64,000 nt of DNA from Catajapyx aquilonaris. Its lineage: Eukaryota. The notes beneath the pieces are model-generated. The model was not told the DNA's origin and made no database searches. It saw nothing but the letters and a program-made list of their open reading frames with translations. The stretch is taken from the NCBI GenBank assembly GCA_000934665.2, contig KZ538082.1, positions 1 through 64,000 of the forward strand, read 5' to 3'. Shown in pieces: positions 3,227 through 55,300 of the stretch; position 1 is the first letter of the stretch; each line of letters starts with the position of its first letter. The position numbers and the translations under genes were made by a program.

Positions 3227-6200
3227 CTAATAACTGCAAGAATAATTCAATATTATAGATATTTGATGGTTGGGTAAAGCAGAAAAGTGCAACTGACAAT
3301 AAGATAAAAACGTGTGAAATTTACCACTGAACATATCGCGTGAGATCGCACAATTTCCGCCTCCTGTCGAAAAGCATCCCGGGAGGGCACGTGAGAAGCA
3401 TTGCTTGGTAATCGATGCAGACAATGACCAAACTGCAGTCGCCAACCACTGGAAAGTATCCACTACGAGCTGGGCACCGGTAGTTAAGCAGCGTGTTTGC
3501 CACTAGAAAAAATCAGGCATTAGGTCAGTGCAAAGAGTGTGTGTCATAGATGCCATCAAGCATTGTTAGCTTTTGTTTTCTGTAGGAGATACTGCAACAT
3601 TTTCTTTAGATCAGAAGGTGATAATGTACAAAATTAATATAACGGCCTTGTCCTTCTTCACTCGTAGTCATAATCTATTCGGTACTGGAGGTCATTGGAA
3701 GCACTAGATGTACCTGGAGCATCTGCTGGATATGGCTTGAGCTGCCCATAAGGCGCCTCCAATTCAGACGCAGGTATGTGAACCTGGTGCTTGTTACCTC
3801 CACTGCCTCCGGATGGCCTACCACTGCCACTGCTTGATAGCCTGCCACTGCCACTGCCTGAAGGCCTACCACTACCACTGCTGGGATAGCCTCCTCCTCC
3901 AGTGATTCCAGGTGACTCATCAGAGTCGCCGTGGTCAGTGTCCAAAATGTCCGTCTTAGTCGGACGGAAGGGAAACGACGACGGCCTGACCACCGAGGTG
4001 TCTTCGATGTATGTAGAGTACCCTGGAGCATAGTCAGCGTACGGAAAAGGTGGCCTTCGAATAATGGCTCCTCCGCAAGGAGTCAGGTAGTCATAGTTGC
4101 ACACTTTCAATTCCTGTTCAAGAAGACAGAGCATTAGTTACTTTGCAATAACACCAGATCTATTCTAGATATACCTGGCTATAAAAAGTTCCGGCAGGAC
4201 ATCCCTGCCTGAAGGCCAGTCCTCCAACGCAAGTGATAAACTCCGAACAATTGTACGCACTTGCGAACGTTCCGAAGGCTTTTGGACAAGGCGATCCATA
4301 AGGCACTAAAGGTCCTGTGGAGGAAAGTATGTCAGACACACCATTTCCTTTACTACGCATAGATGAACATACTGGACAGTCGTCGTCCAGCACATCTGAC
4401 GTTGCTGGGGTAGTCGCAGACGGGCTTGAGAGGATGGTCGTTAAAGAGCAGGCCTCGAGGACATGTCTGAACAGCCACATTACCGTCCCAGCAATTGTAG
4501 AATTTGTCACAGTAGACGTCGTGTGGGTACTGACCACGAGAACGTGAGCATTGGGCTTCAATCTCTGAAACTTCAAATATAATTTTTAATTATATATGCC
4601 AATAGTGTACTGTACGTCACAATTGTGTAGGACCAGCAAGTACCATTTCCTGCACTAGCCCGACAATGACGTGTTTATGCTAAAGAAATGGGCGTGGAAT
4701 TAGGAAAACAAATTGAGAGAAGGAAGGAAGGAGGTGCAAGTGCAAAATCCTGTTTCGGTACCGAAAAAGGCGTCCGTAATTTAAAAGTGGGCGTGTTCGC
4801 CCGATACATTCGATCTGCTACTTTACTGATCATGTTCTGAGACTTTGGTCAAGAGGTGCATTAGAGCAGAAAATCTACTTCCCCCATGGTTCAGCCTGTC
4901 CCATCACGCTTAATTGCCCTTGCCGTTTTACGTTTCCCTTATGAGGAAGGCCGACCTGACTTGAACTTGGATCCAGATGAGGGTTCTACCTGTCGGTCCC
5001 CCAAACCATCAAAGGGCCGCCCAAGGCATTGCCCGGCTCATTTCATTCAGGTAATGAGAGCCGCCTTGCCAAATTTGATATTAGGACGATGGACCTTGAA
5101 GTGGAGGTATAAAGTGAGGATTCGCACGATGTTATTCTTTTCTTGCCGTGTTCTAGGTGGGTGGGATTCATTTATCATTCCTTGAACCTGTCCTAATTGG
5201 GCGGAGATTGTTTACCTTCCTGCCTCTGAGAGAAACTAGCGAAATATACAGGGTGACGTAAAATGTACCAATTTGCATATACTTACAGCAATATACCAAT
5301 TTGCATCATCATGTGTATAAAGTGACATCGTATTTCACAAATGCAATGTCTATATAATTTTAATTTCGGAATAGCACCAGAAGTATAAATTAAGCCATCG
5401 AATTAGTCACAGCAAGGATGACACCTACAAAAAAATATGCGGTACAACCTTGGCAGTTATGACACAGCCAGGTAACGGATTATAAAATGTATCGCCCTCC
5501 TCATTTCGCCTTGAACCATGATGGGATGGACTTTTTGATCTGTCAGCGTGACTTGTCCGAATCGCCCTCGATGGTATTGTGGACCAAGTGTGACCAAAGA
5601 GGGTCCCGGCGGCCTTCCCCAAATCACCGGGATCCTGGTGGTGGGCTGCTGGACATGGAGCGGAGATGGATGTATGGACGCTTTGATTCGCGATTTTCCG
5701 AGGTGGGACACGCCTGAATGGGCAATTCACACGGCGCAAGAATCTACAGGGTGGGCCTGCTTCCCCGGACTACCGCAAGGACGAATATATTGTAAGCTCC
5801 ACTCCTATTTTATGTCACTTCCATTCTCAGCAGACGGTGACGTATGCTAATAAGAAAGAGGACTCCTCCCTTCCTAATTTTGGCGAATAAAAAGGCACAG
5901 AGTGCGTTACGCCACAAGCGACAATGAAAAGGGAACTGGGATATTTGCGTAATCTCTAACCTCCACATGACGGTAATGAGTTTGAAAACAATGTATGTAT
6001 TACTGGTAATACAATCGTAAATCTTCTCGTAACAATATTAGCCCCCATAAGAAACTAATTCACGATTCGTATGGCGTGTCGGGAGTGAAGCACCTTGATT
6101 TGGATGTTGTGTGGGAAACGGAAACATTTCGTGCTCTATTTACTCGGAGTAGGCATTGACATTGGTTTGCGACATTCGTGTGGAATGTCCCTGTCATGTC

Positions 6201-22230: not shown

Positions 22231-22827
22231 GGCTATAATAATACTCTCCCCCCGGAAGCGGATAAGTGTTTTTTCCTCTGCACACTATGTGCAAGTCTCT
22301 AAAAGGATTTGAATAATAAAAAAACTAAACTCTAGTAAAAGTTGAAAAATTGTATTTCCCTACTACAGTAGAGCCTGAACCGGTTCAAATGCAAATGACA
22401 TTTTATGGTGACATGATTATTACGTGCTCGTCTGTAGGCGGAAAACAAACGATGGAATTCCACCGAGTCATGCAAAATCATGCACTTTCATACTATTGGT
22501 GTTATGTCAAGCCTCCTTGACTATTCACATAATTAACATTGCTGTCTAGTATTTCCTAGCTGCCCTTAACCCACATTTGACTTGCTGTCCTCAGATTTGC
22601 CTCGTTACATATGACACCAATTTGTTGTAAAATTGCAGTCATAATTGTGTTCCAATTTAATTAGCAGAGGACCCAGAGGACGCCGGGTATCCACCGCTAG
22701 AGGCGCTGTCTGGCATAAGAGTAGGCCAGGGAGGGAGCTCCGTTGGGCATTGGGAGGGCAAGGAAGAAGGAAAGCCCCCCCTCCTTTCTTTCTTTCTTTC
22801 CGTGCGATCCATCCAGCCGCAAGCCGG

Positions 22828-22864
22828 TATAAAACGGCCCCCGTCGCCTGAATCGCGGTCACTT
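22828..22864 (+). promoter_or_regulatory. TATA box + initiator of Gasp
   Basis: TATAAAA at 22828-22834 and TCACTT at 22859-22864; ATG at 22937. Confidence 0.7.
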
Positions 22865-22936
22865 TGTAAATTCTGCTCGGGGTCTCTTGAGTGAGAGGAA
22901 CTAGGGTGGTGTCCGCGCATTGTGTTGTCCCTCAGG

Positions 22937-25900
22937 ATGAATCGTCCCATACTTCTAGTGCTCCTCGGAGTGCTGGGTTCTGGTATGTACCATCTTTCAT
23001 CAAAAGGGTGGGAGGAAATGAGCAACAATACTGGTCGTATCGGATGCCAACACATTGTTAAGTCAGAGTCGATCAATCTAAAAAGGATTGTCTTAGTGGA
23101 CATTAGAGTGAAAGTTGTCAGATGCTGTGAAGAAAGCACCTAAGACGTCCTAGATTCACCGTGTACTGTTTCTGTCAGATGAAGTTTGCGACTAAGAAAG
23201 TGGGTGTTATGTTTAGGAGTATGTCAGACCATACATTTTAACTGGAGTCCGTGAAAGTCCAAGTTGTGTCTAAGTGAATTGTAGCCTACGAGTTAATTAT
23301 TCAGTGAATGCGCTCTGATTGCGTTGATGGTGCTATGCATAGAGTAAACAGTTTACTAGGTGTTGTTTTGATGTACAAGTAGAGTGTGACTGGTAGAAGA
23401 ATGTAGTTTAGTTATTGAGTAGTGATCATTGAAGCAAATCGGGCTCGAAGCAGAATGAAAGTTATATACTTTCCAGACGTGAACTTTAGGGTTGGGCCAC
23501 ATTTTGACACTATAGATTGGTTTCCGCGTTTCCCTACGTTCCTAGAAAAGGTCATCGGTAAAATGTCGCTGCCCGGGGTTGACATAATTGCATAACATCT
23601 GACCTTTACGTCCACTTTCGCTTGCAGAAATGTGCATGCATATTTAAATCGCATATTCGCATAAAGGCAATGAACTTGGTTCATCACAATTACTTTCAAG
23701 GTGAAGAACATCATGCTAATGCACCCCATACATGAAGCGTGATTGATGAACATCTTTCAAGCCTCTAGCCATTTACAATGCACAAGATTGGCCACCTAAA
23801 GTGTCGGAATTCCCCACCAGAGATTAATGAACCACAATAGCCCATCCCATTTGATTTCACACTCTGCAGTTTTATGTAGGGTTACAGACCCCTTTCAAGT
23901 ACATTCTAGGCCCTTCAAGGTTGCCTCAATTCTTAGGTTTTCACTTAAGTACAGTATGGTGTTTTCCGCTCTAGATGGCCGACCTGACATGCGGTACCAG
24001 CTGGTAGGCGTGGATTAATTTTCCTCCTGATTTCAACACGAATTTGAAGGTGCCGGTTTAGAGACTTGAATGCGCCAGGCGATAACGAACTGTCCTTGTA
24101 CACTCTGCTTATCAGGACTGTCCGCTAGTGTTCGGCTTCGTGAGCGTGTAATTTGGTCCTGCGCTCACTTTTCAACGGTTCAGATCATGCAATTAAGGTA
24201 GTTCTACCTTTATGGTTGGGCATAGAACTGAGAGAGGACAAATAGATTTCTACATAGTTTCAAGCATCATTGCTTCATGGAGAGGTTGCAACAGATATGT
24301 GAAAATATTGATTTGATGTCTTGCAAAATGTTTTCAGGTCAGAATGTTACCCTCTTTTTTTTTGCCAAATTTCAAATTCGCAGGACAGGTTTGGGTGGCA
24401 TTTCGTTGCCTTCGGTTATTATTCATGCGGCATTAGCATGTGGGTTTTGCAGTCGTGATATAGGAGTGACACCTCCAGTGACATGAATCGGGAACCACCT
24501 CGTTTTCAAAGAAGAAGAAAACATGCAAAGGAGTTCAAAAAATGCCTTTGAAGGCCGTCCTTGCTGTGCATTAAAAAAATACCGAGACGGGAAGTAAGAC
24601 AACAGCGTGCGCATGGCCAGGCACGCCCAAAAAATTCGCAGGTCTTCTCACGGTCTGAATTCTTGAGGACACGCTTTTTCTGTCACGTATCCCCAGTATT
24701 TCAAGGCTTAGAGGACCACACTAGGATTCCATAGAGTCCATCTTCCTCGAGTGAAAGTGATGTTTAAATGCGGGTGTGTACACAGCTGGGTGAGACCACA
24801 CCCAACTGGAATGTTGTTACTTCCCACGTAACTGGTCCAGATACCGGTAACCGAAATGCGAATTACAAACAAACGCCTTTAGCTCACTCAAGATGGCCAC
24901 TTTTATTGCGAAAAGGGTCAAACTTTCCAATTATGCTTGCTTATTTCCGGGGGATTGGAGGATGTAGGTATGTGTTGATGATGACGACGTTGGGTGGGCT
25001 GTTGCACCTCCTCTTGAAGAACTTACCACCGTGTCCTTCCGCCTTCGGCTCAAAGGGATTGCGGTAATAAGAAAGGAGAGGGGGCCTCTCCCGAAAAACC
25101 TTCCAGGAAGGGCGTCGTGAGTGTGTTCAAGGGTGCGGCAATGTCCAATAGGATCTTATAGTAGGTGTGGCCTCTGTTAAGTCAAGGAACGCTATGTGGG
25201 TCACTTGCACTTTTTTTCTTGTTGCGCCCCATTACACACCTACTGTACGTAGTGATGCTGACCAGTGTTGGGCTTCCGATACGTCTGTTGTTTGTTTCCT
25301 AGGCTGGAGACAGGCTGGTATTTGGATATGCAAATACAAGTTTGGCTGCAGTTTGGTAGTGTTTGTGTAGTTGATTGCACATTTAGATTGTTGTTGGCAG
25401 AGGTTTTTAGTACGTGACACACTTCTTGGCTCTGAAGATAAACTTCGCTTTAATGTCTTAAAAGAGCAATTCGTAACGCATTATAAATCTGACACTAAAA
25501 TTGTAATTTGCATAATGCCTGTTAGTTACGTTGTATTATATGAAATTAAGAGTAGAACATTGGCTGAGAATTTTGTTTGCTGTCGATCTATTGATTGGAG
25601 AAAGCTACTGAATTGCCTTTGCATATTATACAGTACATTTTGTGAAGAGAATACCTGCCCTATGGAATACATACGCAGCTGTCATATGTGCAGTGAACTT
25701 TTAAAATATTTTCATATTTGTGATTTGTACGACGCCTTCAATGATGAATGTACCAACCTTGGAATGTTGTTGTTTTTAACACCGAACTATTTGCAATATG
25801 ATTTACTGACTCTTAAAATATTCCTGTCGCATTAAGCAATTTTTGTACACAATAATTAATCAATTCTTACAAAAACAACAACAGTCTGAGGTCTAAAGTC

Positions 25901-28900
25901 ACGAGTGCGCTGCATCTACTATTAATATTCCCAAGTGAAAGTGAATGCTCGCTCCTCTCTGTACATAATACCACCCATGAACATAGCATGTACTTCCTGT
26001 CACTCGGCATTTCTTCGTCCCCTCTTCAATGTACTAAACCTTTTCCAGCCATAAGCCAGGAATTCCAGTGTCCACACGAGTTCGGCTTCTACCCACACCC
26101 AAGATCATGCGACAAGTACTGGAAGTGCGACGCAGGAGTCGCAGATCTCAAGACATGCGGAAACGGACTTGCCTTCGACAACAGCGACCCAAAGTTCCTG
26201 ACCGAAAACTGCGACTATCTCCACAACGTCGATTGTGGAGATAGGACACAACTTGGTAAAATATTTAAAAAAAAATAACATTGCATGTTTTTTTTCAGTA
26301 TGGTCTACGGACATGGTTGCTTTTTCTTGGGGGCTTCTACTAACATTGCGAATGGGTGTGATTGTGTTCATATGTGACATGACCCACTGTGCCCATCCCG
26401 TTACCGTCCTTGAACCCTATGTGGACGGCGGCGTTTTCAAAATCGGCCTGAGGAATTGCTTCGGGAAATCAGCAGGGTGAAATCGGGGCAAGGTTGACAG
26501 AGTTTCCTTTTCCTTATTCTTTTTTATCCACCTCTCCCTCTCACCTGAGGGGGCTCCACCTTAATTTGGGCAAATAGGAAACACACCTGGGAGCCAGACG
26601 GCCACATTTCACGAACTTGTTTCTAACCTTGCTGGGTCGACTTTCGTCCCGACTATTATTATTATTGAGCGTATGTTCACATACATTTTTTTTTTAATTG
26701 GGCGGAGGCTATGGCGATTTTATTGCGCGTGGCAAGTAGGCGTGAACTGATCGTGAGTAAGGAAATGCATTATTTGAAGCAATACAGAACTTGCAGTCTG
26801 TTAATTTATTATTACATAAAATCACCGCATTAATATTTAAAAAGTGCCCAAGGTGAGCTTCTTCTGAAATCAGTAGCAGTGTCTGGCTTCTGTTAAATCT
26901 TCAGGATCACTGTTTCGCTCCAGATACATAAAGCAGATGGCGATAAACATCCAAAAATGACCAGTTAACAAGAAGGGCGTTTTCAATCTCGGCCCACTTA
27001 CGGTACCGTACTCAACTGTTTCACCGTTACGTTGGTGGTGAAGGACGAAAGGAAGGAAAGAGAATCGGAAAACATGGTCAACACCCTTGTAGAAACCGAA
27101 AGTGGCTCAATGCCAAGGCCATCTTTCTCTTTGGCATCCACCTAGAGAAAGGGGGTTACTTTTCCCCGTGGTCCAGATGGTTACGTTTTCCATTTCACGC
27201 ATGATGGATGGATGCGCCGTCTTCCATACAACTTGTGTACGTGTTACACTGCCCCATCCTCATTCCTACATGACCAACAACCCATGACAGCTCAGGACAG
27301 ATTTGGCACATATGTAAATTGGTGTGGGTCATCACAGTTAGGCGCACCGCTGGACAGCGGCTCAGAGACACATTCCAGTGTCCAGAGGCCTACGGCTTCT
27401 TTCCTCACCATCAGCAGTGCGACAAGTACTGGGAATGTGCAGAGGGAGAAGCGACATTGCGCTTGTGTCCTAATGGACTCGTCTTTGATACACGCAACTA
27501 TGGAATAGATGAATGCAACTATATGCACACTGTTGATTGTCAGGGCAGAAATCAGCTTGGTAAGTTGTGGTGGAGGGTAATTTGCAGGTGACATTGTCAG
27601 GTACGTATACACATTAAATTGGGGACAGTACATGCTTTCCATTCTTTTGGGTCGTGGTATGTGGTAATGGTTGTAGAATCGTAGTATGACTTATCGAAAA
27701 AGAACAACTTTTGTTGTCTGGTTATGGTGGACCTGACTGAACTGGAAAGTGACAGTAAAGTCTACCTTGACTTTGTTTTTCTTCTACAATACTTGCAGTA
27801 GTCGTTTTTATAGCATGTTTACAATGAGCGAACTTTTAAAAAAGTACACCGCATAACCTTTCACGTAATACTGTGGTAAATGCTTCATCATGCAGAAATT
27901 TTCTTGAAAAAAATTATAATCAGGTCATGGTAATGCCATTAGCCCATAACCAATCAACTATGCTATTAAACTCTACCTTCGGCTGCGGGTTATTAATTTT
28001 ACGAATATGCTGTTAATTTTTTGCATAGGCTACAGCCTTCACGATGCTCAGAAATAAACGTAATAAATGTAATGTTTGTGCGTATGAAAGTAACGTAAAT
28101 TTTTGTGAACAAACTATTCAGTAACTGTCGAGTCAGTAAGCAAATACATCTTGGAAACAATTTATTATGCCATTCAATTAATTTAATTGTGCACAGGGCA
28201 GAATTAATTAACGTTTCTTTCAACCCTGCAGAACCTCCAATTAGGACCACCAACTGCCCCCGTCTGTACGGAATCTTCCCCGACGAGGAGCGCTGCGATG
28301 TCTTCTGGAGCTGTTGGGACGGCGAGTCCAACAGGTACCAGTGCTCCCCTGGACTGGCCTACGACCGCGAGGCCCGCGTCTGCATGTGGGCCGACCAGGT
28401 CCCCGAATGCCGCCAAGATGGTGAGTGACAAATTAGAAGTTCATTCAGACTCTAACCATCCACGATGACCATCCCCCAGAGGCTGCTGGAGGATTCAAGT
28501 GCCCTGCTAACAGCGAGGCTGCAGCCGCCGGCACCTTCTCTCGTCACGCCCACCCAGATGATTGCAGAAAATACTTCATCTGTCTGAGCGGCAACCCCAG
28601 GGAATACGGATGCCCCATCGGCACCGTCTTCAAGATCGGAGATGATGAGTACAGCGGTTTTTGCACCGACCCAGAAGGCGTGACCGGATGGTGAGTCAGG
28701 CCTGTTCCATTGTAATAACCGGGAGCTAACCTGTTGTAATTATTTTAGCGAGGACTACTATGGCGACTTGGACCTGAAGAGCCTGAAGAAGAGCGAACTT
28801 CTTCTGGGTCTTGAAGGCGAGGTGAGCAGCAGGCCCGCCCCGAAGCCAATCCTCCGCCGAAAGGAACTCCGACCTGTGCAGACAACACCTCCACCACCTC

Positions 28901-29220
28901 CACCACCACCAACCCCATCACCACAGAGACAACCATCTCGTGTCTCTCCAGCCCTGTCTCGCCCAACATCCAGCCCCCTTCGCCCCGTGGCCAGACCCCC
29001 TCCACCACCGCCAGCACCACAGGCCTCAGCGACTCCGACCATCCTTCGCCCGTCTGTTCTCCGCAACGACAGGCCCGCACCGACGCTGCCAGCCCCTGCA
29101 CCCACCTCCCGCACCGCCTCGTCACTCACCCCCAGCTCTGCCACCAGGGCCTCACCAGCTGCCACTAGTGACAAGCCCACAGAGATCAACGACGAGTACT
29201 ACTACTATGACGACCAGTAG
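22937..29220 (+). CDS. Gasp: Gasp / obstructor-C / CPAP3-C, secreted chitin-binding protein with a Pro/Ser/Thr-rich tail
   Basis: Exons 22937-22982 (MNRPILLVLLGVLGS), 26049-26255, 28232-28420, 28480-28690 and 28749-29220. Diagnostic Gasp motifs: SCDKYWKCD..LKTCGNGLAFD..TENCDYLHNVDCGDRT, LYGIFPDE.CDVFW..RYQCSPGLAYDREARVCMWADQVPEC, FSRHAHP.DCRKY..EYGCPIGTVFKIGD and CEDYYGDLDLKS. Confidence 0.95.
27338..27559 (+). CDS. Gasp: Second (alternative) domain-1 exon of Gasp
   Basis: 222-nt phase-1/phase-1 exon: FQCPEAYGFFPHHQQCDKYWECAEGEATLRLCPNGLVFDTRNYGIDECNYMHTVDCQGRNQL. Intact 6 Cys; donor G|GTAAGT at the same position as in exon 26049-26255. The acceptor (CACAG) has a weak pyrimidine tract; an alternative same-phase AG lies at 27294-95. 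Confidence 0.8.
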
Positions 29221-34462: not shown

Positions 34463-37439
34463 ATGTACTTCGCCGTACTCACCTTGGTCCTCTTCGGATC
34501 TTCAGGTATGGGAGTCTGCCTGTATACGGGTCAAGTGGAAGGGGATGTTGGTTTTTGCTACTTGTTTTGATGTTTTGATCGTTCGATGCCCATTAGTATG
34601 TCAGCATGGATTTTCGTATCTTTTGAGAATCTGCCAAATAGTTACATTGTGCTCAGGTCATGCAATATTTAACCAGCCAAATGAATTACTTGAATTTTGA
34701 GCGCAGTTATTTTGAAATGATTTTCTTAGCCATATGCCCCCGAAGAAAACCCAGATTCTAATGACAGACAATATACTACCTAATCTCACGATTCAATTAT
34801 TTTGAATTGACAAGCTACTGATAAAGTATTGGTACTCGAACTGGTCCTGCATTACGCGTTCTATATATTTAAAAGAAACTCCAGGTTATTGTTTACTACG
34901 TGCCTACCTAATTTCTCATGATTATTCAACTCACAGAAAAATAATAACCAGAATTATAGTCTGATGCAAAAATCTAAGAGTAAATAATGATCATCAATAA
35001 TAATTGCACAAAAATCGGAATTGTGAGACCTTTACCAGAATTTTTAAATTAATTTGAGCTTACATATCACGCAACCGCGCTTAAGGAAAGGGATTTCGCA
35101 TTAACTTGTAAGTATATTTATTTGCATTATTCCAAGGCGGTGTCTTTTTTTGCATTGAACAAATATTTAAATGCTAAAGAGCAGGAAGGGAAAAAGGAGT
35201 ACTCAGCGGTCACTTTGCATTCTTTATGCGTTTAGTGCCTGTAGCTAAGCGATGCTGTAAATTATCCATAAATTGCACCGCACATAGGCTAGAAAAGGAG
35301 AAACTAAATGACACAGAAACATCTCTATGGCGTGTGCAGTTGCAAGTATTATCTCATGCAAAACTGCTCACACACTAACCGATTGTTATGATACTTATCA
35401 ACAAGACAGTGCTTGATAATAATTTATTATGCATCACTGCTCTCTGTAATCCAGCTTTGCTGACTCCATTAAGCCAAGTAATCCAGCAAACTGGATTCGG
35501 TGTGAAAGTTAGACCCTTCTTAAGATCTCCCCCACCGCACACACTTCCTCTATAGCTGAAAATGTTCACTTAAGCCCACCCCTTTCACCAACCACATTTT
35601 ACATTTTTGTCTCAGTCTCGCACGAGAGCCATAAAACGCCAGGCATTTCCCTCCAGGAAGAAGATGTCTTGACGCAACAGAAATTATTGTATTATTCAAC
35701 CACACGAGAGGCTGTTGAGAGAGAGATGCCAAGGACATCATTTCTGTTTGGCCCCTCTTTTGCAAGGCTCGGGAGCCAACACTTTCACCCAAATATCCCC
35801 CGGGCTACTCACTTTGCATTAATGGGTGCCACCTTTTCTGCGAATCATCGCGTCCTTCATTTCTCTGGATTCTTACCAGAAAATTTTTGTAAACCAGTAC
35901 ATGCCTCGTGGATTATTCATGCGACCTGTTATGTGCACCCCCCCACAGAACTAGAAACCGACTTGGAGGATCGCTTTTGGATGGGACGAGTAACATACAA
36001 ACACACACTCAAGCTGGGAAGTGGGTTATACCAGTTTTTTTCGATCCCAATTTAAAGTTTCACTTTCATCAGAGGACCGCTTGTTTAGAAAGGCCACTAA
36101 ATTATGCACGAGAAAAAAAATATTGGAAAGGAATTAATGGGTGAAGAATGGACCTTGAAGATGATACTGCCCGGCCATGGTTCCTCGTGGTTGATCTCCT
36201 TGACCTCTGGAGAGAGGTGGAAGCCCCTTCGATGAGATTCCAGTCTAATAGGGTTTTGTCACGAACACCTTAAAAAGAAACTACATGAGATGCATGCATC
36301 TAGGCCTCCAGCTCATGTATAATTATGAATGATCGAAGACATCCTGCGATAGTCATTTTTTAATAAATGATTGATGTTATTGTTCCAGTTTTGGCTCAGC
36401 AATCTTGCAAAGATGAAGGGCTGTTTCCGGACCAAGAGCAATGTGACGCATACATTGAGTGTCGTAATGGAGTATCTGAAAGGAAGCTGTGCCCTGAAGG
36501 TCTAGTCTTTGATGACCGCTGGAACCATTTTAGATACCCCTGCAGCTACCCTGTGGACGTGGATTGCGGCTCCAGAAAACGGCTACGTAAGTTGGATACC
36601 TTCCTATCACGTACGACCTTCGACTGATTTATTTCAGGTTGTGAGACGTTACCTGTGTTTACGGACCTGACTGTTACCAATTTTTTACCTGTCTTGAAAT
36701 CGACTCTTAACCTTCAGAAGAAAAGCTGAAGAGTGAAATATAACCAAGGACATTTCCTATATACACTGCCGTTAAGCGAAGGGTAGCTCTTGAAATGTCA
36801 ATATTTGACCTTCCAGAGCCTCCTCAGCCTACAGCGCAATGCCCTCATCAGTATGGGATGTTCAGAGCTAGCGATTCACCTGCGGACTGCGGTACATTTA
36901 TGAACTGCGTAGGAGGTGTCGCCTTTCGAATCAACTGCCCTGAAGGACTGGCTTTCAGCGAGGAGCGACTCAGTTGTCTCTGGCCTGACGAGGTGACCAC
37001 CTGCGATACTAAAGGTCAGGGTTATTTCAACAGACGTAGACATGTACGTGATGAAATATTCACACCCACACGTTGTTTTTTTGCGCAGCCTTCTTAGGAC
37101 TGGAATGCCCCGGTCAGACTAACTGGTTGGAACTGATTCTGAAGGGACATCCAAGGTTCGCCCATCCTGAGGATTGTCGTCGGTTCTTCACTTGCGTCAA
37201 CGGCAGAAGTCCTCGCATTCATGTTTGCGGGGAAGGATTCGTATACAACCAGAAAATCCTAACTTGCGATGATCCTGAGAATGTTCCAGGATGGTATGAC
37301 CCTATTTCATTTATTTTGCAACGTAACATGCTGTGACATATTTATTTTTATTCTTAGCGAGAAGTTCTACCCTCAAGAGATTCTGGATGCCGTGAGGAAA
37401 CTTGCGCGATTCCGAGAGGAAGACAACCAGCTGAAGTAA
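34463..37439 (+). CDS. obst-E: Obstructor-E / CPAP3-E
   Basis: Exons 34463-34505 (signal peptide), 36389-36586, 36817-37014, 37089-37293 and 37358-37439. Motifs QCDAYIEC..KLCPEGL.F..YPCSYPVDVDC, CPHQYG..CG.FMNC..CPEGLAF..WPDEV..CD.KAFLG and CVNGRSPR..CGEG. Confidence 0.92.
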
Positions 37440-38881: not shown

Positions 38882-40707
38882 ATGCAAGCAGGCTGCTGGA
38901 GTATTTTGTTGACCCTCTGCGTGGTACTCGGTGAGTATAATTATTTTCCGCCTTTTACTTGGCCTCAGTAGATGTCTCTTTAGCCTTGAGTAAGACAATG
39001 GCCTGGTTACAGCGGCGGGTCAGCGGCGGGCGCCCAGACCTAGGGCAAGAACCAGCACCACCACAGAGAAGGCGGCTGATCTGACGGACCACTGCCCGGA
39101 ACCAAATGGTTTCTTCGCAGATGCCTACCAATGCGATCGGTACTACGAGTGCATCAATGGCACAGTCATTGACCACATATGTCCAGATGGATTTGCATTC
39201 AGCGATTATTCTATCTCTGTTGGAAAGTGCGAGTTCAAGTTCGCAGTGGACTGCAGCGACCGACCTGAATTACGTAGGTCGAATTTGCACAAACCTCGAC
39301 CTTGTTCGATACATATTTTTAAAAAGAAATGCTAGCATCTAACGGTGCATCGCAAGGTCAGGACAATGGAAGCGTGAATGTCTAGCGTACCGTTAAATCA
39401 AGTGTTTTTTTTCCTTCTCGACAGAGGTGCCTCAACCGAGCTTGCATTGCCCGAGAAAGAACGGGTACTTTCCACATGAGGAGGAACATATATGTGACAA
39501 GTTCTACTACTGCGTCGACGGAAAATTCAACGCTCTGACGTGTCCAGGAGGTCTGGTGTTCACCGACGTTACAGGAACATGCACCTGGCCCGACGAAGCC
39601 AAAAGGAAAGGGTGTTCCTCTGAAGGTGAGGGGTCACCCAGATTGACAATTTGGCCGTCCGCTTCATTAAAAAAATTTTACCCGCATCTTGAATGCAACG
39701 GAGAAGAAGCACCTTTCACTTTCGCAAAACTTGATTTTCCGACCGGATAGGTGTGGGCCCATACATCACTTTGTTACATAAGAAAGGCCAGCCAGCACTT
39801 ACCACTCAGCAGTTTCCTGCACTCAGTAGCAGTGTCCCTGCCGTTTTTGTACAAAAGGGCAAAGATAGGATAATATGCTTCTACCTTTCACCTTTCCCCT
39901 TCACTTCCTGCTTAACGGAAAAGGCCATGAAACGACATTTGAAAATGGGGTCCTCAGCTGACAACAAATCCTCTAGCGGGAAATGTCTCTTTCAGAGGTG
40001 TTTGATTTCAACTGCCCTCAACCACCTGCTGGAGCCCCAGCTAGCACTCTCATGGTGCATCCAAGGTTTCCGGATCCCAAGGACTGCCAGTTCTTTTATG
40101 TGTGCATCAACGGCAATGTTCCACGTCGCAACGGATGCAGCATCGGCCGCGTCTTTAACGAGGTCACCCAGCAGTGCGACGAACCCAAAAACGTGCCAGA
40201 GTGGTACGTAAAAGCAGGCTTTGGAAAGAAAAGAAACGGAAAAAAATGGACATGCAATCCTTCGCGTGACCCGTCTGTCTATTGCCTTCAAGTGCTTCAA
40301 AGTGGATAGCATTCCTGCTGATCACACTACTGCATTCCTGTCTGTTCAAGTTTTGCTTTCACGATTGTTTACCAGCAGCTGTAATCGTTCTGTTTGGTGT
40401 AAATTCGTAAATTTGAGAGTGCGTAATGTTAGAGAAAGTTCGGTTTTGAAAAAAAAAATTGGCCAAAAAAAAATACCCTTCAGGAATTTGGTCTGCCCTT
40501 TGCCGATTTCACTTTTAGCCACTGCCTGGCTGCTGCACACGATTAGACATGTTCTTGCAGAACTTCAAATGATGAAACGAGTTTATTTTAGACACTGATA
40601 TGTTTCTCTCTTACAGCGAAGGATGGTACAAGGGAATTTTGGACTACGACGACGACGGGAGCATCACGAAATCGGCCAAGAATCGGGCTAAGGTCAAGGC
40701 CGGTTGA
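38882..40707 (+). CDS. obst-B: Obstructor-B / CPAP3-B
   Basis: Exons 38882-38930, 39013-39273, 39425-39625, 39996-40203 and 40617-40707. Motifs CPEPNGFFADAYQCD, PQPSLHCPRKNGYF.HE..CDKFYYCVDGKFN..TCPGGLVF and VFDFNCP..HPRF.DP.DCQFFYVCING..PRRNGC. Confidence 0.93.
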
Positions 40708-41244: not shown

Positions 41245-42444
41245 ATGTTTCCGAGGCCGTTCCTGCCATTTTTGCTGCTCACACAGGCGTTGGTTGCACG
41301 TGAGTAACCGGCTTTGTCTTTACAATGCTAGGTCTGAAATGGGCTTCTTACAGAGAGTGCGTTCGTGTGTCCTGAACCACATGGGTTGTACGAGGACGAC
41401 AAGCAGTGTGATAAGTACTACGAATGTATCGACCGAGTAGTACAGGTGAAGCTGTGTCATGACGGGTTGGTGTTTGACCCCGAGAGTCTCAAGTTCGAGC
41501 CGTGCGATCATCCTTTCAATGTTGATTGCGGAACCAGGCATCTGCTACGTATGTACAGTATAGCGCACAATGCAGGACAAGGCTAGAATGGTGTTATTTT
41601 TTGCAGAGGAACCACAACCTAGTGGTGTTTGCCAACGTCAAAATGGAGTCTTCCCCCATCCGGATCCGACCGTATGCAACATATTTTATACTTGCATTGA
41701 AGGAAAGGCTACCAAGATGACCTGCACTATTGGATTGCACTTTGACGAGATTAGGGGCAACTGCGTCTGGCCTGACGTGTCTGGAAGAACCGGCTGTCAG
41801 GTCAAGTCAGGTAAGATTCTTTACAGACTCATAAAAAGCAGTTTTATAAACAAAAACTTAAATATTGCAGAGGTGATTGATGGCTTCTCGTGCCCCAAGG
41901 AGCCTGTGATTGACGCCAATGGTCTCTCAATACCTCATCCAAAATTCCCCCACCCAACAAACTGCAGGAAGTTCTTCGTGTGTTTGAATGGTGTGACACC
42001 AAGAGAAAACGGTTGCTTTGAGGGAGAAGTTTACAACGCGGTCAAAGAAAAATGCGACGATCCAGAGGAAGTCCCTGAATGGTAAGTAACCCGACCTCAA
42101 TACTCAGAATTGCTTCCAGTGGCATATTTGGTGACTTAAATGGTCGTAGCCCCAATGATATGACACGACCTTGCCGGCTACTTGGAACCGAGGATTGTTA
42201 TCGGGGGTATAGCCAAGGTGACACTCTCACCTCCTAGTCACGTCCTTCTCCATGGCATTCCATCAGACTCCAGACGAAGTTTGCATACCGGAACGCCTTC
42301 AGCAGCTAATGAACTCTGTGTATAATTTTTTTATTGTCATCCCACAGTGAGGACTGGTACAAGGACACCGCTCCACCTCCTCCTGCCCCTGCTGCTGGTG
42401 GTGGTAACCGACCTGGTGGTGGCCGTCCCAATGGCCGCCGATAG
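41245..42444 (+). CDS. obst-A: Obstructor-A / CPAP3-A1
   Basis: Exons 41245-41299, 41354-41548, 41607-41810, 41871-42081 and 42348-42444. Motifs DGLVFDP..CDHPFNVDC, HPDPTVCNIFY.CIEG.A..CTIGLHFDE..CVWPD and HPKFPHPT.C.KF.VCLNG..CEDWYKD. Confidence 0.92.
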
Positions 42445-45400: not shown

Positions 45401-46256
45401 TTACATCTTTGGTCTACCCTCAGAAAACCCTTCAGAAGGCCCCTTCTTTCTAAATAAGGACCTGCTGGATACAACCCCACCCTCTTTGCATTCCATAGAT
45501 TATAGCAGTGCACAGTAGAATATCAATTGCTGAAGCTGGCAGAGCATGTTGAACTACATTCTCAGGTATGGTACAAACTGGCGTAAATTTCAGAGTTCAC
45601 GCGATGGTGTTATGAAGCAAGACATGGTTCGAAGCTTATTAGGAGGTATCGACATGGTCATGGCTGGATCGAAAAGTAGGCCCTGCTGGAAGCGAGTGGA
45701 ACCGGCGTGTGTGGTCATTCAACTTTCTCGGCAAGACTTGGCTGGCGTCCATCCCATTGCAAACCCCCCCCCCCCCNCCCCCCCCCCTCCTCCTCGTCTT
45801 TGAACCCGTCCCACCCCGCCAAGATTACCCGCAACCAACGCCTCTAGGGCCCGACAACATTCATTCGCAGGATAGCATTTTTTGACCGGATGGAAACATT
45901 TGCGTGTAAACTATTACATCAGTAGTTGTTTAGTAGGGGACCTGCTCACTCTCACTTTTTCCTCTGATTGGAAGGAAATGGGTCGAGCGATGCGTTGTCA
46001 CCTTCCTTTTGGAACACTTCCAGAAGGCAACCAATTGGAGAAAGAAGTTGAAGGGGGGGTTGTAGGGGAAAGGTGTTTCACTTTTCCCAGATGGTCGAAT
46101 CCTCCGACGGAGGCACTCCGATCGGCTGGGGTATGTATGAATTCACGGCCAACTGCGCACGCCAAGTGAGCTCCCAAGCGAGGCAACAGCTCCAACTAAA
46201 ACTAGGTGCCTGCCCCCGTGCACAACCATTCCTCAGGGTGACTGGCAGCGGACAAG

Positions 46257-47959
46257 ATGAAGATGCTTCTTACACTACTACTGCTGGCTCTCGCGGCTGT
46301 TGGTGAGTTATGGGCCATTCTTCTTTTAGAGTGTGGGGGACAAGCGACCTTGCTCTTGAGATGGATTGATTCTTTGCTCTTTACATTTGATGAAATTTTT
46401 TTATCGGACCATGGACATTGTTGATACCTTCGCATTTTCATTGTAGCGGACTACACATCTGATATTCTTTTCAAAAGGATGTGTTTTCTTTTATTGGCGT
46501 TGATTTGTAAAGGAGACTTCAATGATCGTATGGAGCAGTAACGTACTGTTTGCTAGGTGTTTCTTACTAGTGGGGCATCCGGCTGCTCGACATTATTTTC
46601 TCACCTGCTTGTATGCTTCATTAGTAGTATCAGGCAATCAGCTTAACTACTATGAAATACACGCCCATTGCTATCACAATCATTCTGCCAAATGTTTCAC
46701 AGTCACTTTTCGGTCAGTTGCGGTAAAGCCTTTCCTATGCACATATTACTGCTCTTTCCTTACGTGAAAATTTCATTGACATATTTTTGTGCACAAAACT
46801 TCGCATGAAAGCGCTTATGACATAATTATGTGTTTTCCTCAGGTTCATACGCCCAGTTCCAGTGCCCAGAACGTAATGGGTTCTTCCCTGATAGAAAGCA
46901 GTGCGACAAGTATTACGAATGCTTAGACAGCCACCCTGAACCCAAATACTGCCCAGACGGTCTTGCATTCGAGATCAAGAACCCCAACCACGAGAGATGC
47001 GATCTTCCATTTAACGTCGACTGTGACGGAAGGACAGAATTCCGTAAGTGTTACGTATCATTCTGGATTCTACGCAACCGTTCTGCTCTCAACCTTGCTC
47101 GGTAACGAAAAGGGACAAGCTTATTTTTGGATCCAAAACTTTCACTCGTTCCCTTGAAAGCATCACTTTCCCTTTGTGGACAAGTCTTACAAGTCAAATT
47201 GGTGGAGGTTGACAAAGAAACCGTTCCCCCCCCCCCCCCCCTNNNNNNNNNNNNNNNNNNNTTTTTTTGCTATAACATTTTATTTCCGTTCCCAGAGGAG
47301 CCTCAGTCCTCGGTTCAGTGTCCTCGTAAGAACGGCTTCTTTGCCCATGAGGACGCTCAAGTTTGCGACAAATTCTACAATTGCGTGGATGGGAAAGCGA
47401 ACGAACTGTCGTGTTCCGCCGGATTGGTTTATGAGGAAGAACGAGGTTCCTGCGTCTGGCCACAGGAGAGCACCAGGGAAGAGTGCAGGCATCCTAAGAA
47501 AGGTGAGTCACACTGACGTTTTCCAAAAACTATTGGAAATTCTTTTTCTGTGTTTGTGGTTCTTCGTCTCGCTTCATGGAGTTAACTCGGGTAATTTTGC
47601 GAGAAAAGAGAAAGCAAGGAACAAAAAAAAGAGGGTCTATCTTACAGAAAAGCTGGCCGATGGCTTTTCGTGCCCTGACGAGGAGGTGATTGGCGATAAT
47701 GGACGTGTCATACCTCATCCAGTGTACGCCAATCCTAATGATTGCCAGAGGTTTTATGTCTGCCACAACGGTGTTCAACCTCAGGAAGCAAGCTGTCCTC
47801 CAGGAACTGTATACAACGATGTCAAATTCAAGTGTGACGAGCCTGCCAACGTCAAGGGATGGTATGTCTCTTAGTCTTTATATACATGCAACTTATTACT
47901 GACAAATTTGCTTGTGTTTTAGCGAGGACTGGTTCAAGGACGAGACCAGGAGGAAATAA
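46257..47959 (+). CDS. CPAP3-A2: CPAP3-A2 (second obstructor-A-class protein)
   Basis: Exons 46257-46302, 46843-47043, 47296-47502, 47648-47861 and 47923-47959. A2-type motifs PNHERCD, CDKFYNCV.G..EL.C and KL.DGF.CPDEE.IG..GR.IPHP. The class label is from recalled insect A2 sequence. Confidence 0.85.
47243..47261. other. Assembly gap (19 N) between poly-C and poly-T runs in an intron; a single N also at 45777
   Basis: N bases in the sequence. Confidence 0.98.
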
Positions 47960-49569: not shown

Positions 49570-51304
49570 ATGGCCTTCACATTGGTGCTCACTCTGGCTC
49601 TTCTGGGCTATGGTAAGTTAACTACCATCTACCTGCTTAATACATTTCATACAAAAAAAGTCGGCCAAATTGATAACTCGTTGTAATTAATGAATTACAC
49701 AACCGGCATTATGATAATGATAATGTTATAACACCCACCCAGAAGGCCTGTGAATAACCTCATAACGCCTTTTAAAACTCATTGTCTTATGAATGGCATA
49801 TTTTAGACTCGTCATCACATCACCATATGGCTTTCACTTTTGAGCCTTTTAAGCAACTCACACGCCTGTAAAGAGGACCAACCTGAAAAAAGTAGCACCC
49901 TGCCAATAATTACCTGCCTCTTCAAAAACCAATATTGCCTTTCCAAAACTACTCTCGAGCTAGAGAAAAATGTGCAAATATCTATTTAAGACAATAAAAA
50001 AAGATACCCGCGGCTGCTCGGTCTGGTTTCCTCACCGACCTGTTGGCCTAGCTTCCAAGGCCTCACTTGGGTGTGTCTTGTAGTCCACCGTTTCTCTTTT
50101 TCTCTTTCTCTCGGTCCCTTTACGCAGATGTTAATTTAACTACAGAGTAATTATGCTAATATGGCCACGATTTACAGCACGGGTTCTGGTACTTTGTGCG
50201 AGCAAAATTGTGTTATTTTAGTTTAAGATAGTCTTGATTGCTGACGCAAGGAAAAAAAACAGTTTTTTGTCGCCTTGCGTGATTGTCAGCCATATATCGC
50301 AATGATCAGTCACACAGAAAACTTCCTGTAATCATTGTATAGTCTATGTAAATTATGCAGGTGCCTGCGATGACCATTACACAATTTATGGCGCTGATAC
50401 TGATACAAGACACTAATAATTTATTATCGGGATTTCAAAATTAGCAACAAATAATTTGAATAAAATTGTGCCTAAAATCAACGGTTTATTTTCAGTTCAT
50501 GCTCAGTATGGATTGCAAGGCTGCCCCGAGCAGCACGGCCTGCAGCTATACCCTCACGAGTCATACTGTGACCACTTCTACAAGTGTGCCAATGGAACTC
50601 TAACTCTGGAAATATGCGAGAATGGTCTTCTCTTTGATGGCAAAGGGGCAGTACACAACCACTGCAACTATCACTGGGCTGTACACTGCGGAGAACGCAA
50701 ATACGAGCGTAAGCACTGTTTTAAAATTGTACCGCAACAATGACTGAAAACGCCACTCTTGTTACAGTCGTCGCCATTTCTTCTCCCGGATGCGAATTCC
50801 AATTTGGAATCTACCCTATCGACCACGGGTGCCACACCACCTACCACAAATGCGCCTATGGGATTCCATATGAGCACCCATGCGAGCCCGGCCTAGCCTA
50901 CGACCACAAAACCCACTCTTGCAATTGGCCCGACCTTCTCTTGGACATATGCGACCCTGAATGTAATGTTTGCCATGACTTGTGCTATTATTCGTATTGA
51001 CTGCTGTTGTCCTTTCCAGCCGTTGTGGGTTTCAAATGCCCAGATAAGATCCCACCTCATAGTCCATCTAGAAAGTTTCTGCCTTTCCCTCGATTCCCGA
51101 TCCAAGGAAGCTGCGACCAGCTGATCACATGTGTGAATAAGTATCCGCGTCTTATCACGTGCGAACATGGAAAATTCGTGGACCAACACAGTCTTACTTG
51201 TCTGGATGCTGACGAAGTGCCGTCATGGTAAGTTCGTCTGCTGTGTAATGGTTATTGTTAGGTTGTAATATGTTTTGTTCATTTTCAGCGCCGGCAAGAA
51301 GTAA
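49570..51304 (+). CDS. Peritrophin-A: Peritrophin-A / obstructor-D / CPAP3-D1
   Basis: Exons 49570-49612, 50496-50708, 50768-50962, 51020-51227 and 51289-51304. Motifs NGTLTLE.CENGLLFDGKGAVHNHCNY.WAV, CEFQFG.Y, GLAYD...CNWPD.L and VVGFKCP..FPRFP..C..LITCV..PRLI.C. Confidence 0.94.
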
Positions 51305-52387: not shown

Positions 52388-55300
52388 TTAATTCCTGGTT
52401 CGGAAGCGTCCCTGCTGGTTGCTGGCCTGCTGCTGAGGCTGCTGCTGACTGCCGAGGTCAGCATTGTCTTCTTGGAACCTCGGCCTGGACGGACGCTGAA
52501 GAGATCCGTCGGCGTTGTTACCACCTTCCTCCAAGGGTGGAGCAATGGTGGTGGGGACGTCGCAGTCCTCGGTCGGAGGAAGGACGCATCTCAGAGACCT
52601 CTTGTCGAAGACCAGCATGGCAGGGCACCGCTGAAGACGAGGGTATCCTCCTTGGCACTGCCAGTAGCGGTTGCAAGACTTGCCCAGAGGAACGTTGCCG
52701 TTGGCGTCGTCCTTGCACAGAGCTGGAGGCAGGAAAGGAGATAACACATGTTTCAGGCACCTTTGGGTCGCGTGCTACTTTGTTGCTAGTTCACATGTAC
52801 TCTATGCATGCATTAAGTGCTTCCTTGCTGGGGAGGAAATTGTGTGTTGGGATCGTTTCCGCTGGTTGTTAACATGCAAGATACTGTATCTTTGCGTAGA
52901 TTTCACGCCTAATACCAGAAGTATTGTTTTGCGTAGATTGCAAGATTGGTAGATTTCACCAAATTCTGTGTGAAATATTACGAAACGTTCCTCTGATAAA
53001 GAGAAATTATTGAACAGACCGAGCAAGAACATATGTGAATGGACAGTAATTTCTGAATTTCCAAGATAGTGCACTGCCCATAAGTTCCTAGTTCAAGAGG
53101 GGAGCACAAGTTGCTCCTCTACCAGTTGGTTACTGTTCATATAACCTTTTCCCCTATACATTTCTTTGGCCTGGGTAGTGTGCCATAACAGTCACGTTAC
53201 AATGGTTAATAACTCCACCAGGCGTTTGGTAAAACTTGGCATGCACACGATACCCTGCATGTGTAGTCAACACATTTCAGAATCTAACCTTATAGCAAAG
53301 GAGCTGCAGCCAGCCTTTCAAACTGAATCTCGGTAACATTGTAGGAGAAAGAACACAACTTAATTAAGTTTGATGGTATTTTCCAGAACGCAATGATTTC
53401 TGCCGAAAGCAATATTACTGGCATTAACCTACCAATAAATATTGTTGATATAACATGTTACTAAAGTTCCTTCTCATGATAAATAATGCGACAAAGAACA
53501 TTACTGTACATTGCACTAGGCCTATTTGCCTCATGATTTGTAATGTGGACATTCCATGAAAGAGATAGTCTATATCAGCCCGAACTTTCATATAACTCGA
53601 CACAATGCATTATTCATGCAGCATCTGCATACACCCCACCCAGTTGGTATACACTCACGGTGCTTTTGGCATCCTGGTACATTTTCTGGCCAGTCGCAAG
53701 AGTGGGTATCTTCGTTGTAAAGCAGTCCTCCGATGCACTGCAGTTCGGTGGCAGTTCCGTTCCAGCATGTCCAATAACGCGTGCAGGAAGTCTCATGACC
53801 GAAGATTCCGTACAGCCAGTCGCAGTGTTCCGTTCCAATGGGAGGATCTGCGAGTAAGCAATTTTTCCTTATTAGCAATCAAGGTCACCGTTTACCATCT
53901 CCTCTCTACATAATTTGTTCACAATGACCAGAAGAGTGTAGGAAAGTAGCCATGAAAAGGTTGTTAACACGCCATTATTTTTGCATGCAAAGTGTTTCGT
54001 GCTTAATGAAGAATATATAAACAAAAGAAACATTTTCACATAGACTAAGTATGTATATACAATAGGAGATCCACACAGGCGAGGGAGGACTTTCAGTTTC
54101 CTTCCGGCGACCTCCTTCCTACAGAAACAGAAGGGCAGAAGGTAACGAGTGACCACGTCACGAAAAACGGAACATGTTAGAAGAGTCCATCAGCACACAG
54201 AGGAAGGCAGAAGAGTGTCCAACGGGCCAGACGGTGTCATCTTCATCGCCGAACTTACTGGCATGCTGCTTTCCGTCACAATAATTGCTTCTCCATGGAT
54301 AGTCACAATTGTCAGCCACCCCTCGGTTCCTCCCGGCAAAGACAAGTCCGTTGGGGCAGTCGAAGAGTTCCGGCTGTCCTCCGATGCACTCCCAGAACCG
54401 GTCACAGTAGGTCACATCTCCGACGACCCTGCTCTTGGCCTGGCACGGGTCAGCCTGGTCGTTCCGCTGCCCTACACCTGAGGAACCAACAAAAAGGTCA
54501 GACAAGTCATGCTGCGTGTTACTCACTTCTTTTGGGCCTCGTGCTGCAGTCCACCTCGTAGTTGTAGTTGCACACTTTGAAAGGAGAGGACAGGCTTACG
54601 AAGCCGGTGTAGGACAACCCATTGGGACAGTCCCGGACCTCCTGCTGCTTATTGTCACCCACACAGGCGTAGTACTTGTCGCAGTACTCCTCATGCGGTG
54701 CGGTCTTCGATTTGGTCGTACATGCATCTTGTGTCATGGCTCCAGTCGAAGGGAAAAAGAACATGAGGTAAGATGAAACTCTCAAAGAGAAAACGTCAAA
54801 TCTCGGTCGACAGATGCCATATGCCACGCATGTGATTTTCACGCTTAAGGTTATGCAGAAAGAAGTGCAGCTCTTCACGAGGCGATGAGCAACAAGGGAT
54901 CATTTCTTTCCGCCAGTTTTCAAGATGAGCGCCCAACAATCGGCCCACCAACCTAATTGCTCCAGGGAAAGCGCTTTTGGTGAGAACCTTGACTACATTT
55001 GGACCCCCCACTTGCTTTCTCAGGAACATACGGACCATCGATGCGCAGCCCAAGAATGTTCGCATGATTTTCCCTATCGGTTGGGCAAGCCAGCAGTATG
55101 GTGTCTGCTGCATGCAGTTGGGAGGGGCAGAATCCACCGAGGGTCGCCGAACTCCAAGTGGGTGACTTGGGCGAAAGGGGCCTCAACTACTATGCACACA
55201 CACATTTACCTCCAGGTCCTTTCTCTCTGCTCGACGACCGCCGGAAGTTCCAGCTGCTTCTTACTACTGGAAATGTAGCCTCCAAGGATGCAATCACTCC

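Follow-up and report, generated by a model that had tools for sequence, protein, structure and literature searches.

A Second, Diverged Domain-1 Exon in the Gasp/Obstructor-C Gene of Catajapyx aquilonaris as a Candidate Regulated Alternative Exon

Results

Two Tandem Domain-1 Exons in the Gasp Gene

The plus strand of contig KZ538082.1 of Catajapyx aquilonaris, analysed here over its first 64 kb (the window), carries a Gasp gene whose product has a putative signal peptide, a set of three CBM14 domains, and a Pro-rich tail; in this gene, the exon for domain 1 is followed in tandem by a diverged, intact homologue, hereafter exons 2a and 2b. Its pattern of divergence shows that exon 2b is not a decaying relic but that, during most of its existence, purifying selection has preserved it as a chitin-binding domain, and on balance it probably serves as a regulated alternative exon, without strict exclusivity towards 2a. 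The RNA examined came from X1, one small public run of unrecorded kind, which provided one contig of the Gasp gene. This contig, of 2055 nucleotides (nt), aligned to the window without any mismatch or gap and lacked four GT..AG introns, and it was therefore taken to derive from spliced RNA. The parts of the gene are the following:

Exon 1, 22816..22982, plus strand: 5′ untranslated region (UTR) and start of the coding sequence (CDS), with the ATG at 22937; encodes MNRPILLVLLGVLGS, followed by one base that opens a split codon; X1 contig.
Exon 2a, 26049..26255, plus strand: canonical domain 1 (CBM14), 207 nt, both ends in phase 1; X1 contig, Pfam CBM_14 44.1 bits.
Intron 2a-2b, 26256..27337, plus strand: 1082 nt, guanine-cytosine (GC) content 0.44.
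Exon 2b, 27338..27559, plus strand: intact but diverged domain 1 (CBM14), 222 nt, both ends in phase 1; Pfam 41.5 bits; skipped by the X1 contig.
Exon 3, 28232..28420, plus strand: domain 2 (CBM14), 189 nt; X1 contig piece and joints, Pfam 48.8 bits.
Exon 4, 28480..28690, plus strand: domain 3 (CBM14), 211 nt; X1 contig piece and joints, Pfam 35.9 bits.
Exon 5, coding part, 28749..29220, plus strand: final Cys of domain 3, then the EDYYGDLDL motif, a Pro-rich tail, and ...NDEYYYYDDQ ahead of the stop codon at 29218-29220.

The junctions of the contig were 22982>26049, 26255>28232, 28420>28480, and 28690>28749, all of them GT..AG; the first two had already been proposed in an earlier reading of this DNA (the original prediction) and are now confirmed by spliced sequence. 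The 5′ edge of exon 1 at 22816 is that of a contig piece possibly cut at 22815 by a repeat filter, and the piece corresponding to exon 5 extends from 28748/9 to 29800, with the 3′ UTR running past 29800. The peptide MNRPILLVLLGVLGS of exon 1 is a hydrophobic signal-peptide region, as judged directly from the sequence.

The gene is the Gasp/obstructor-C (CPAP3-C) orthologue of a pancrustacean, an assignment made because of the identity of exon 2a to Gasp-named proteins and of its grouping with decapods in domain-1 trees. Exon 2a was 75-84% identical to insect, springtail, and decapod proteins named Gasp, Obstructor C or, through automatic naming, obstructor-E, with 104 of the 105 candidates being significant. 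In the trees, it was placed inside the Gasp domain-1 clade (95/98) and joined the decapod canonical domains (96/90, and 85/82 in a second tree), with the other genes of the window falling outside. The layout of group C of the obstructor/CPAP3 family was also found, with a signal-like exon 1 followed by three CBM14 exons in the X1 contig.

Exons 2a and 2b lie where the original prediction had placed them, and splice sites, BLASTP, and Pfam agreed with its description of both as paralogous, frame-symmetric, and tandem. Exon 2a is bounded by the acceptor ...ccttttccag/CC and the donor TTG/gtaaaata, and exon 2b by the acceptor ...gtcatcacag/TT and the donor TTG/gtaagttg, which has the consensus GTAAGT; both exons begin with two codon-completing bases and end with one extra base, and an in-frame alternative acceptor of 2b is present at 27296. 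Both were over the Pfam gathering cut-off of 22.1 bits for CBM_14 (PF01607), with E-values of 2.3e-11 (2a) and 1.5e-10 (2b), and a regular-expression scan revealed a complete six-Cys unit in each, at 26069-26236 in 2a (56 amino acids, aa) and at 27379-27540 in 2b (54 aa). The domains that they encode are predicted to be chitin-binding (CBM14/ChtBD2). A BLASTP alignment of 2a with 2b showed 32 identical residues out of 68 (47%, E 2e-24) with one 2-residue gap, direct nucleotide repeats of 70-79% identity connect both exons at a spacing of 1304-1310 nt, and the motifs CDKYW, NGL.FD, and C.Y.H.VDC..R.QL are all present in the two of them, as had been claimed.

The stop-to-stop open reading frame (ORF) around exon 2b (27274-27591) contains no in-frame ATG, so that the exon could be expressed only through splicing, in agreement with the original prediction. 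Exon 1 spliced to 2b reads ...LGS-V-RRTAGQRLRDTFQC..., and the hydrophobic signal region therefore comes from exon 1; the peptide T-A-G-Q, which according to the original prediction resembles a signal cleavage site, lies within VRRTAGQ at the start of 2b. Open frames were found for all four combinations of these exons: 2a only (374 aa), 2b only (379 aa), both (448 aa), and neither (305 aa). With a GC content of 0.51, exon 2b forms a GC island between flanking introns of 0.44 and 0.36, and its acceptor has the poorest pyrimidine fraction of the gene (0.45 versus 0.65-0.70 for the four RNA-confirmed acceptors).

Selection on Exon 2b

Comparison of exons 2a and 2b gave a proportion of synonymous differences (pS) of 0.82, which is saturated, and a proportion of nonsynonymous differences (pN) of 0.32. 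The identity at codon positions 1/2/3 was 71/65/39%, and 32 of the 66 aligned codons (48%) encode the same residue. In a neutral simulation of 20,000 runs, where 2a was mutated randomly to the observed nucleotide divergence, the open frame was kept in 5.5% of the runs and the six Cys in 0.015%, with both being kept in 0/20,000; the resulting protein identity had a mean of 28% and a maximum of 44%, compared to the 48% observed. The resemblance between 2a and 2b is far beyond chance. It is because of the saturated pS with low pN, the codon-position pattern, and the outcome of this simulation that exon 2b is regarded as a domain maintained by purifying selection.

Gene Models with Both Domain-1 Exons in Petrolisthes Crabs

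The same arrangement was found in public protein models of crabs. The Gasp orthologue of the porcelain crab Petrolisthes cinctipes, Pcinc_014041, has three of them (KAK3881522, KAK3881523, KAK3881524), which have in common their first 14 residues, corresponding to the signal exon, as well as domains 2-3. Together with a model from a second species, their composition is as follows:

P0220, P. cinctipes: canonical domain 1 only.
P0259, P. cinctipes: alternative domain 1 only.
P0260, P. cinctipes: canonical domain 1, then alternative domain 1.
P0258, P. manimaculis, Pmani_024500 (KAK4303491): alternative domain 1 only.

Both the domain swap and the switch between three and four domains, offered as possible outcomes by the original prediction, are therefore represented among the public models of P. 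cinctipes. As in the window gene, the canonical domain 1 comes first and the alternative one second, upstream of domains 2-3, and the alternative exon shares with 2b a Val encoded where the preceding exon joins it and a Cys1-Cys6 span of 54 residues (56 in the canonical domains). In contrast to these likenesses, the sequences of the alternative domain and 2b were identical at 33 out of 64 positions (52%), with no gap, and so were no closer than 2b is to 2a, although the comparison of 2b with 2a requires a 2-residue gap. A comparison of P. cinctipes with P. manimaculis showed 8 differences in 240 aligned residues, 7 of the 8 in the alternative exon, which is intact in both species.

BRAKER is not known to output alternative transcripts that lack hint support. 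According to the excerpts of the corresponding paper, the Petrolisthes annotation was produced with BRAKER 2.1.6 with gill RNA-seq training (PMC10849366). The P. cinctipes models P0220, P0259, and P0260 are 1199-1277 aa long and run into a downstream gene similar to subtilisin/proprotein convertases, with PF00082, PF01483, and PF16470 listed beside PF01607 for P0220; this run-on into a protease-like gene is probably a gene-model fusion, and the models are imperfect. The P. manimaculis model ends after a short tail (...LRGLGLK).

Splicing of Exons 2a and 2b

The X1 contig joins 26255 to 28232 across exon 2b and thus corresponds to a 2a-only messenger RNA (mRNA), which uses 2a and leaves out 2b. 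This joint therefore rules out constitutive inclusion of 2b, and with it the constitutive inclusion of both exons that had been named beforehand as an outcome refuting their use as alternatives.

The skipping of 2b would also be expected from a strict mutually exclusive pair, in which each mRNA carries exactly 2a or 2b, with exclusivity enforced by competing long-range RNA pairing or by exon-specific repressors. The tandem position of both exons, their homology, their near-equal size (207/222 nt), and their common phase are typical of exons that can take one another's place, and alternative-only models exist in two Petrolisthes species. However, steric hindrance is not applicable with an intron of 1082 nt, and as both exons are multiples of three, an mRNA with the two of them or with neither stays in frame and would not be expected to decay. 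Moreover, the crab orthologue model P0260 holds both exons, and no duplex masking the splice sites was found that was stronger than shuffled controls: at the four splice sites, the observed pairing energy was reached by shuffled sequences in 4/30, 6/30, 9/30, and 19/30 of the cases, against mononucleotide shuffles, which are a crude control. The inverted repeats around 2a and 2b are short, such as would be expected to arise by chance. Among them, an imperfect one of 24 nt (26364-26387 / 27324-27347; 71% complementary, with a 9-bp perfect core), also not above the chance control, has one arm around 110 nt downstream of the 2a donor and the other covering the 2b acceptor. We thus consider strict exclusivity to be quite unlikely. 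The earlier argument that exclusivity would need a regulatory mechanism holds insofar as steric hindrance and frame-dependent decay are inapplicable, whereas exclusivity itself became doubtful, given the both-exon model P0260 and the lack of pairing above the shuffles.

Transcription of 2b from its own promoter, with a signal-peptide exon of its own located within the 2a-2b intron, is highly improbable. One ATG-started, signal-like ORF (26313-26388, MVAFSWGLLLTL...) ends in this intron at a GT in the right phase, but its donor, GTGCCC, is far from the consensus, no X1 RNA covers it, and the alternative-only crab models use the common first exon, with an identical MRYLVAIFLFIAAT start. Beyond this weak candidate, no other signal-like first exon was found in the 2a-2b intron, and a blastn search of the intron for repeat elements gave the self match only.

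Relationship of the Domain-1 Exons

In trees built on about 60 alignment columns, 2a fell within the Gasp clade, whereas 2b and the crab alternative domains branched from the unresolved base of the Gasp-like group. The domain phylogeny suggested in the original prediction as a way to ask whether both exons are sisters thus placed 2a with the decapod canonical domains and 2b at the base of the Gasp domain-1 group; constraining 2a and 2b as sisters cost 14.6 log-likelihood units (approximately unbiased test, p-AU 0.09), by which their sisterhood is disfavoured, not rejected. When the four sequences (2a, 2b, crab canonical, and crab alternative) were compared, six sites and a common 2-residue deletion paired 2a with the crab canonical domain and 2b with the crab alternative one, three sites grouped them by species, and none followed the third pattern. 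Three of the six sites of the first type carry states also found in a millipede Gasp, and those three may therefore be ancestral. Exon 2b and the crab alternative exon could derive from one old duplication or from two parallel ones.

The 54-residue Cys1-Cys6 span, GFFPH, the L before Cys4, and CNY are common to 2b, the Petrolisthes alternative domain, and domain 1 of myriapod and mite Gasp, and every canonical domain 1 examined, whether of an insect, a springtail, a decapod, or another crustacean-like sequence, was of the 56-57-residue form. On this basis, the pair may be ancient, with a duplication that took place before the longer canonical form arose, an "ancestral-type" module kept by some malacostracans, and a spare exon lost by hexapods and copepods, although we hold this history to be doubtful. 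As part of the same tentative reading, old and derived modules would be combined into three- and four-domain Gasp proteins.

Searches for Relatives and Evidence against the Use of Exon 2b

Several results weigh against exon 2b being a working alternative exon. No transcript containing 2b was found in C. aquilonaris in the one contig of run X1 searched, an absence that is weak evidence because contigs drop rare variants. A six-Cys scan detected no second domain-1 exon in any of 43 other arthropod (metagenome) loci with a Gasp domain 1; these include eight whose domains 1 and 2 are separated by a long intron (L001, L006-L009, L011, L012, L014), insect-like and with several near-identical copies from one species, as well as copepod- and springtail-like loci in which domain 2 follows domain 1 without interruption. 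Word-indexed searches with 2b gave no candidate among proteins of similar length and, among longer proteins, only one of 20 candidates passed (P0001, 46%, of another obstructor type). In metagenome contigs, 252 pattern matches contained 0 relatives of 2b. The crab isoforms, for their part, are predictions only. A clade of 2b with the crab alternative domains is missing from the best tree, where enforcing it costs 5.2 log-likelihood units (p-AU 0.295, not rejected). Finally, the GC content at third codon positions (GC3) was 0.52 in 2b versus 0.61-0.81 in the confirmed exons 2a, 3, 4, and 5 (0.47 in the short CDS of exon 1), which fits low expression or recent relaxation. The lower GC3 and the weak acceptor accompanied by a consensus donor point to low or conditional use of 2b.

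Further searches gave the same picture of domain 1. With tblastn, only domains 1, 2, and 3 were detected in the 18 of the 43 loci that are at least 2600 nt long, and in ten further protein clusters (29 members; branchiopod-like, springtail, and copepod-like) the complete domain 1 was always of the canonical 56-57-residue type. An exhaustive HMMER search with 2b against 50% representatives, a clustering that would merge isoforms, gave 2468 hits at E<=0.001, with multi-domain mucin-like proteins dominating among the 150 listed. The three-domain hits retrieved were 40-45% identical to 2b, and the Gasp-type ones among them carry a 2a-type domain 1. In addition, a Gasp-like protein of 271 aa with three ChtBD2 domains, crustacean-like in sequence (P0230, KAB1731726.1), was found filed under Klebsiella pneumoniae on a contig of 986 nt; it is almost certainly contamination of a bacterial assembly.

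These data also bear on whether 2b could be a silent relic, that is, an exon which once worked, or a part of a lost tandem gene copy, and which is now unspliced in this lineage and not yet decayed. The only transcript contig skips it, its acceptor is the weakest of the gene, its GC3 is below that of exons 2a, 3, 4, and 5, and close relatives are missing from the databases and from the 43 loci. However, 2b retains an open frame, six Cys, in-phase splice signals, and a Pfam score well over the threshold despite saturated synonymous divergence, and its inactivation would therefore have to be very recent; in addition, two crab species have this arrangement in intact form, and their gene models treat it as expressed. 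A silent relic is thus an unlikely explanation, and we favour exon 2b as a regulated alternative exon.

Discussion

A Model for the Use of Exon 2b

In the model that we propose, exon 2b would be a tandem duplicate of the domain-1 exon, retained as a working coding exon and regulated in splicing. The spliceosome would skip 2b by default, with the 374-aa 2a form as the main product; a weak acceptor plus a consensus donor, as in 2b, is the usual make-up of an exon that depends on an activator. In some tissue or moult stage 2b would then be included, either replacing 2a, to give a 379-aa protein of three domains with a different N-terminal chitin-binding module, or following it, to give a 448-aa protein of four domains. 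Exon 1 would provide the signal peptide to every isoform, and 2a could perhaps be skipped independently, allowing up to three products. A device for strict exclusivity would not be needed, which is the simpler reading because the crab model holds both exons. We infer the expression of 2b in this species, together with its timing and place, and also that the swap or addition of a domain 1 alters chitin binding or organisation by the protein.

Among the chitin-organising proteins of the cuticle, Gasp/obstructor-C is the most conserved, with a domain 1 that is 75-84% identical from flies to shrimps. A second domain 1, around 50% identical and selectively kept, would let one gene make matrix proteins with different or extra chitin-binding modules, and such variant Gasp proteins could be used in distinct kinds of cuticle or at distinct moult stages. 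The crab models suggest free combination of the exons, for which an exclusivity device is perhaps unnecessary. If the pair is old, it would also be a record of how the domain-1 sequence was replaced in Pancrustacea. On the practical side, gene predictors and orthology pipelines will settle on either exon, as occurred in both Petrolisthes annotations, producing spurious "fast-evolving" orthologues.

Comparison with Known Alternative Exons

Alternative paralogous exons are already known in the obstructor/CPAP3 family. Variants a and b of obstructor-E of Drosophila melanogaster are described in the excerpts of Tajiri et al. (2017, PMC5226733) as arising from two exons of similar sequence, 2 and 3, either of which is spliced to a shared exon 1. 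To judge from these excerpts, obstructor-E and the Gasp gene of the window are alike in belonging to the same family and in having two similar alternative exons, a common first exon, and two protein variants, whereas the obstructor-E swap spans far more than domain 1 and affects paralogue E, not C/Gasp.

A second case concerns exons 5a and 5b of CPAP3-C, reportedly defined by Jasrapuria et al. in 2010. For this Gasp orthologue, isoform-specific RNA interference (RNAi) phenotypes are described in Tribolium castaneum and Nilaparvata lugens, according to the excerpts of the corresponding papers (PMC3504105, PMC5960286, PMC13073896). As presented there, the case involves the same orthologue group and two forms of one exon, but this is the fifth exon and not that of domain 1. 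Decapod Gasp isoforms labelled X1 and X3 (P0192/P0251, P0257/P0196) show a long Pro/Ala-rich tail versus a short ...LRGLGLRK, a difference that may correspond to the 5a/5b pair of insect CPAP3-C. A further RefSeq isoform of decapod Gasp, X2 of Macrobrachium, Palaemon, and Procambarus, could be a domain-1 swap. In exon 5 of the window gene, ...LKKSELLLG... is contiguous within the exon.

In Dscam-type arthropod clusters, mutually exclusive exons are under competing RNA pairing. The pair in the window resembles such clusters in its tandem homologous exons and preserved phase. In contrast to them, no docking/selector pairing was detectable in the window, and the both-exon crab model argues against exclusivity.

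An alternative exon for domain 1 of Gasp/CPAP3-C was not found to be described in the literature searched (supplements excluded), and the terms isoform, alternative, splic-, exon, Gasp, and CPAP3-C do not occur in a paper on decapod CPAP3 proteins (PMC5799365). As far as our searches reach, the domain-1 version in Gasp is therefore new, and the exon pair is present in public crab models yet undescribed in the literature found.

The Surrounding Cluster

The window has a GC content of 0.43 and contains 18 complete six-Cys ChtBD2 units, plus a spurious one, in at least eight obstructor/CPAP3-type genes on both strands. Besides Gasp, its units are located at:

4392-4550, minus strand.
36406-37246, plus strand.
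39093-40156, plus strand.
41368-42034, plus strand.
46863-47814, plus strand.
50522-50952, plus strand.
52562-54722, minus strand: obstructor-type gene with domain-1 exons at 54722-54546 and 54445-54278, followed by domains 2 (53824-53669) and 3 (52717-52562).

Within this cluster, duplicated domain-1 exons were detected only in Gasp and in the minus-strand gene at 52562-54722, whose tandem domain-1 exons (54722-54278) bear out the suggestion that a second gene of the cluster shares this architecture. These two exons are in frame across an intron of around 49 nt (54526-54478), compared to 58-59 nt for the RNA-confirmed short introns of Gasp, and both domain-1 copies are sisters in the tree (99/84). 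Either this short intron could prevent the joining of the exons, or the gene could simply encode four domains. Finally, runs of N corresponding to assembly gaps, 20 N in total, are present at 45777 and 47243, the second one inside the gene at 46863-47814, between its domains 1 and 2.

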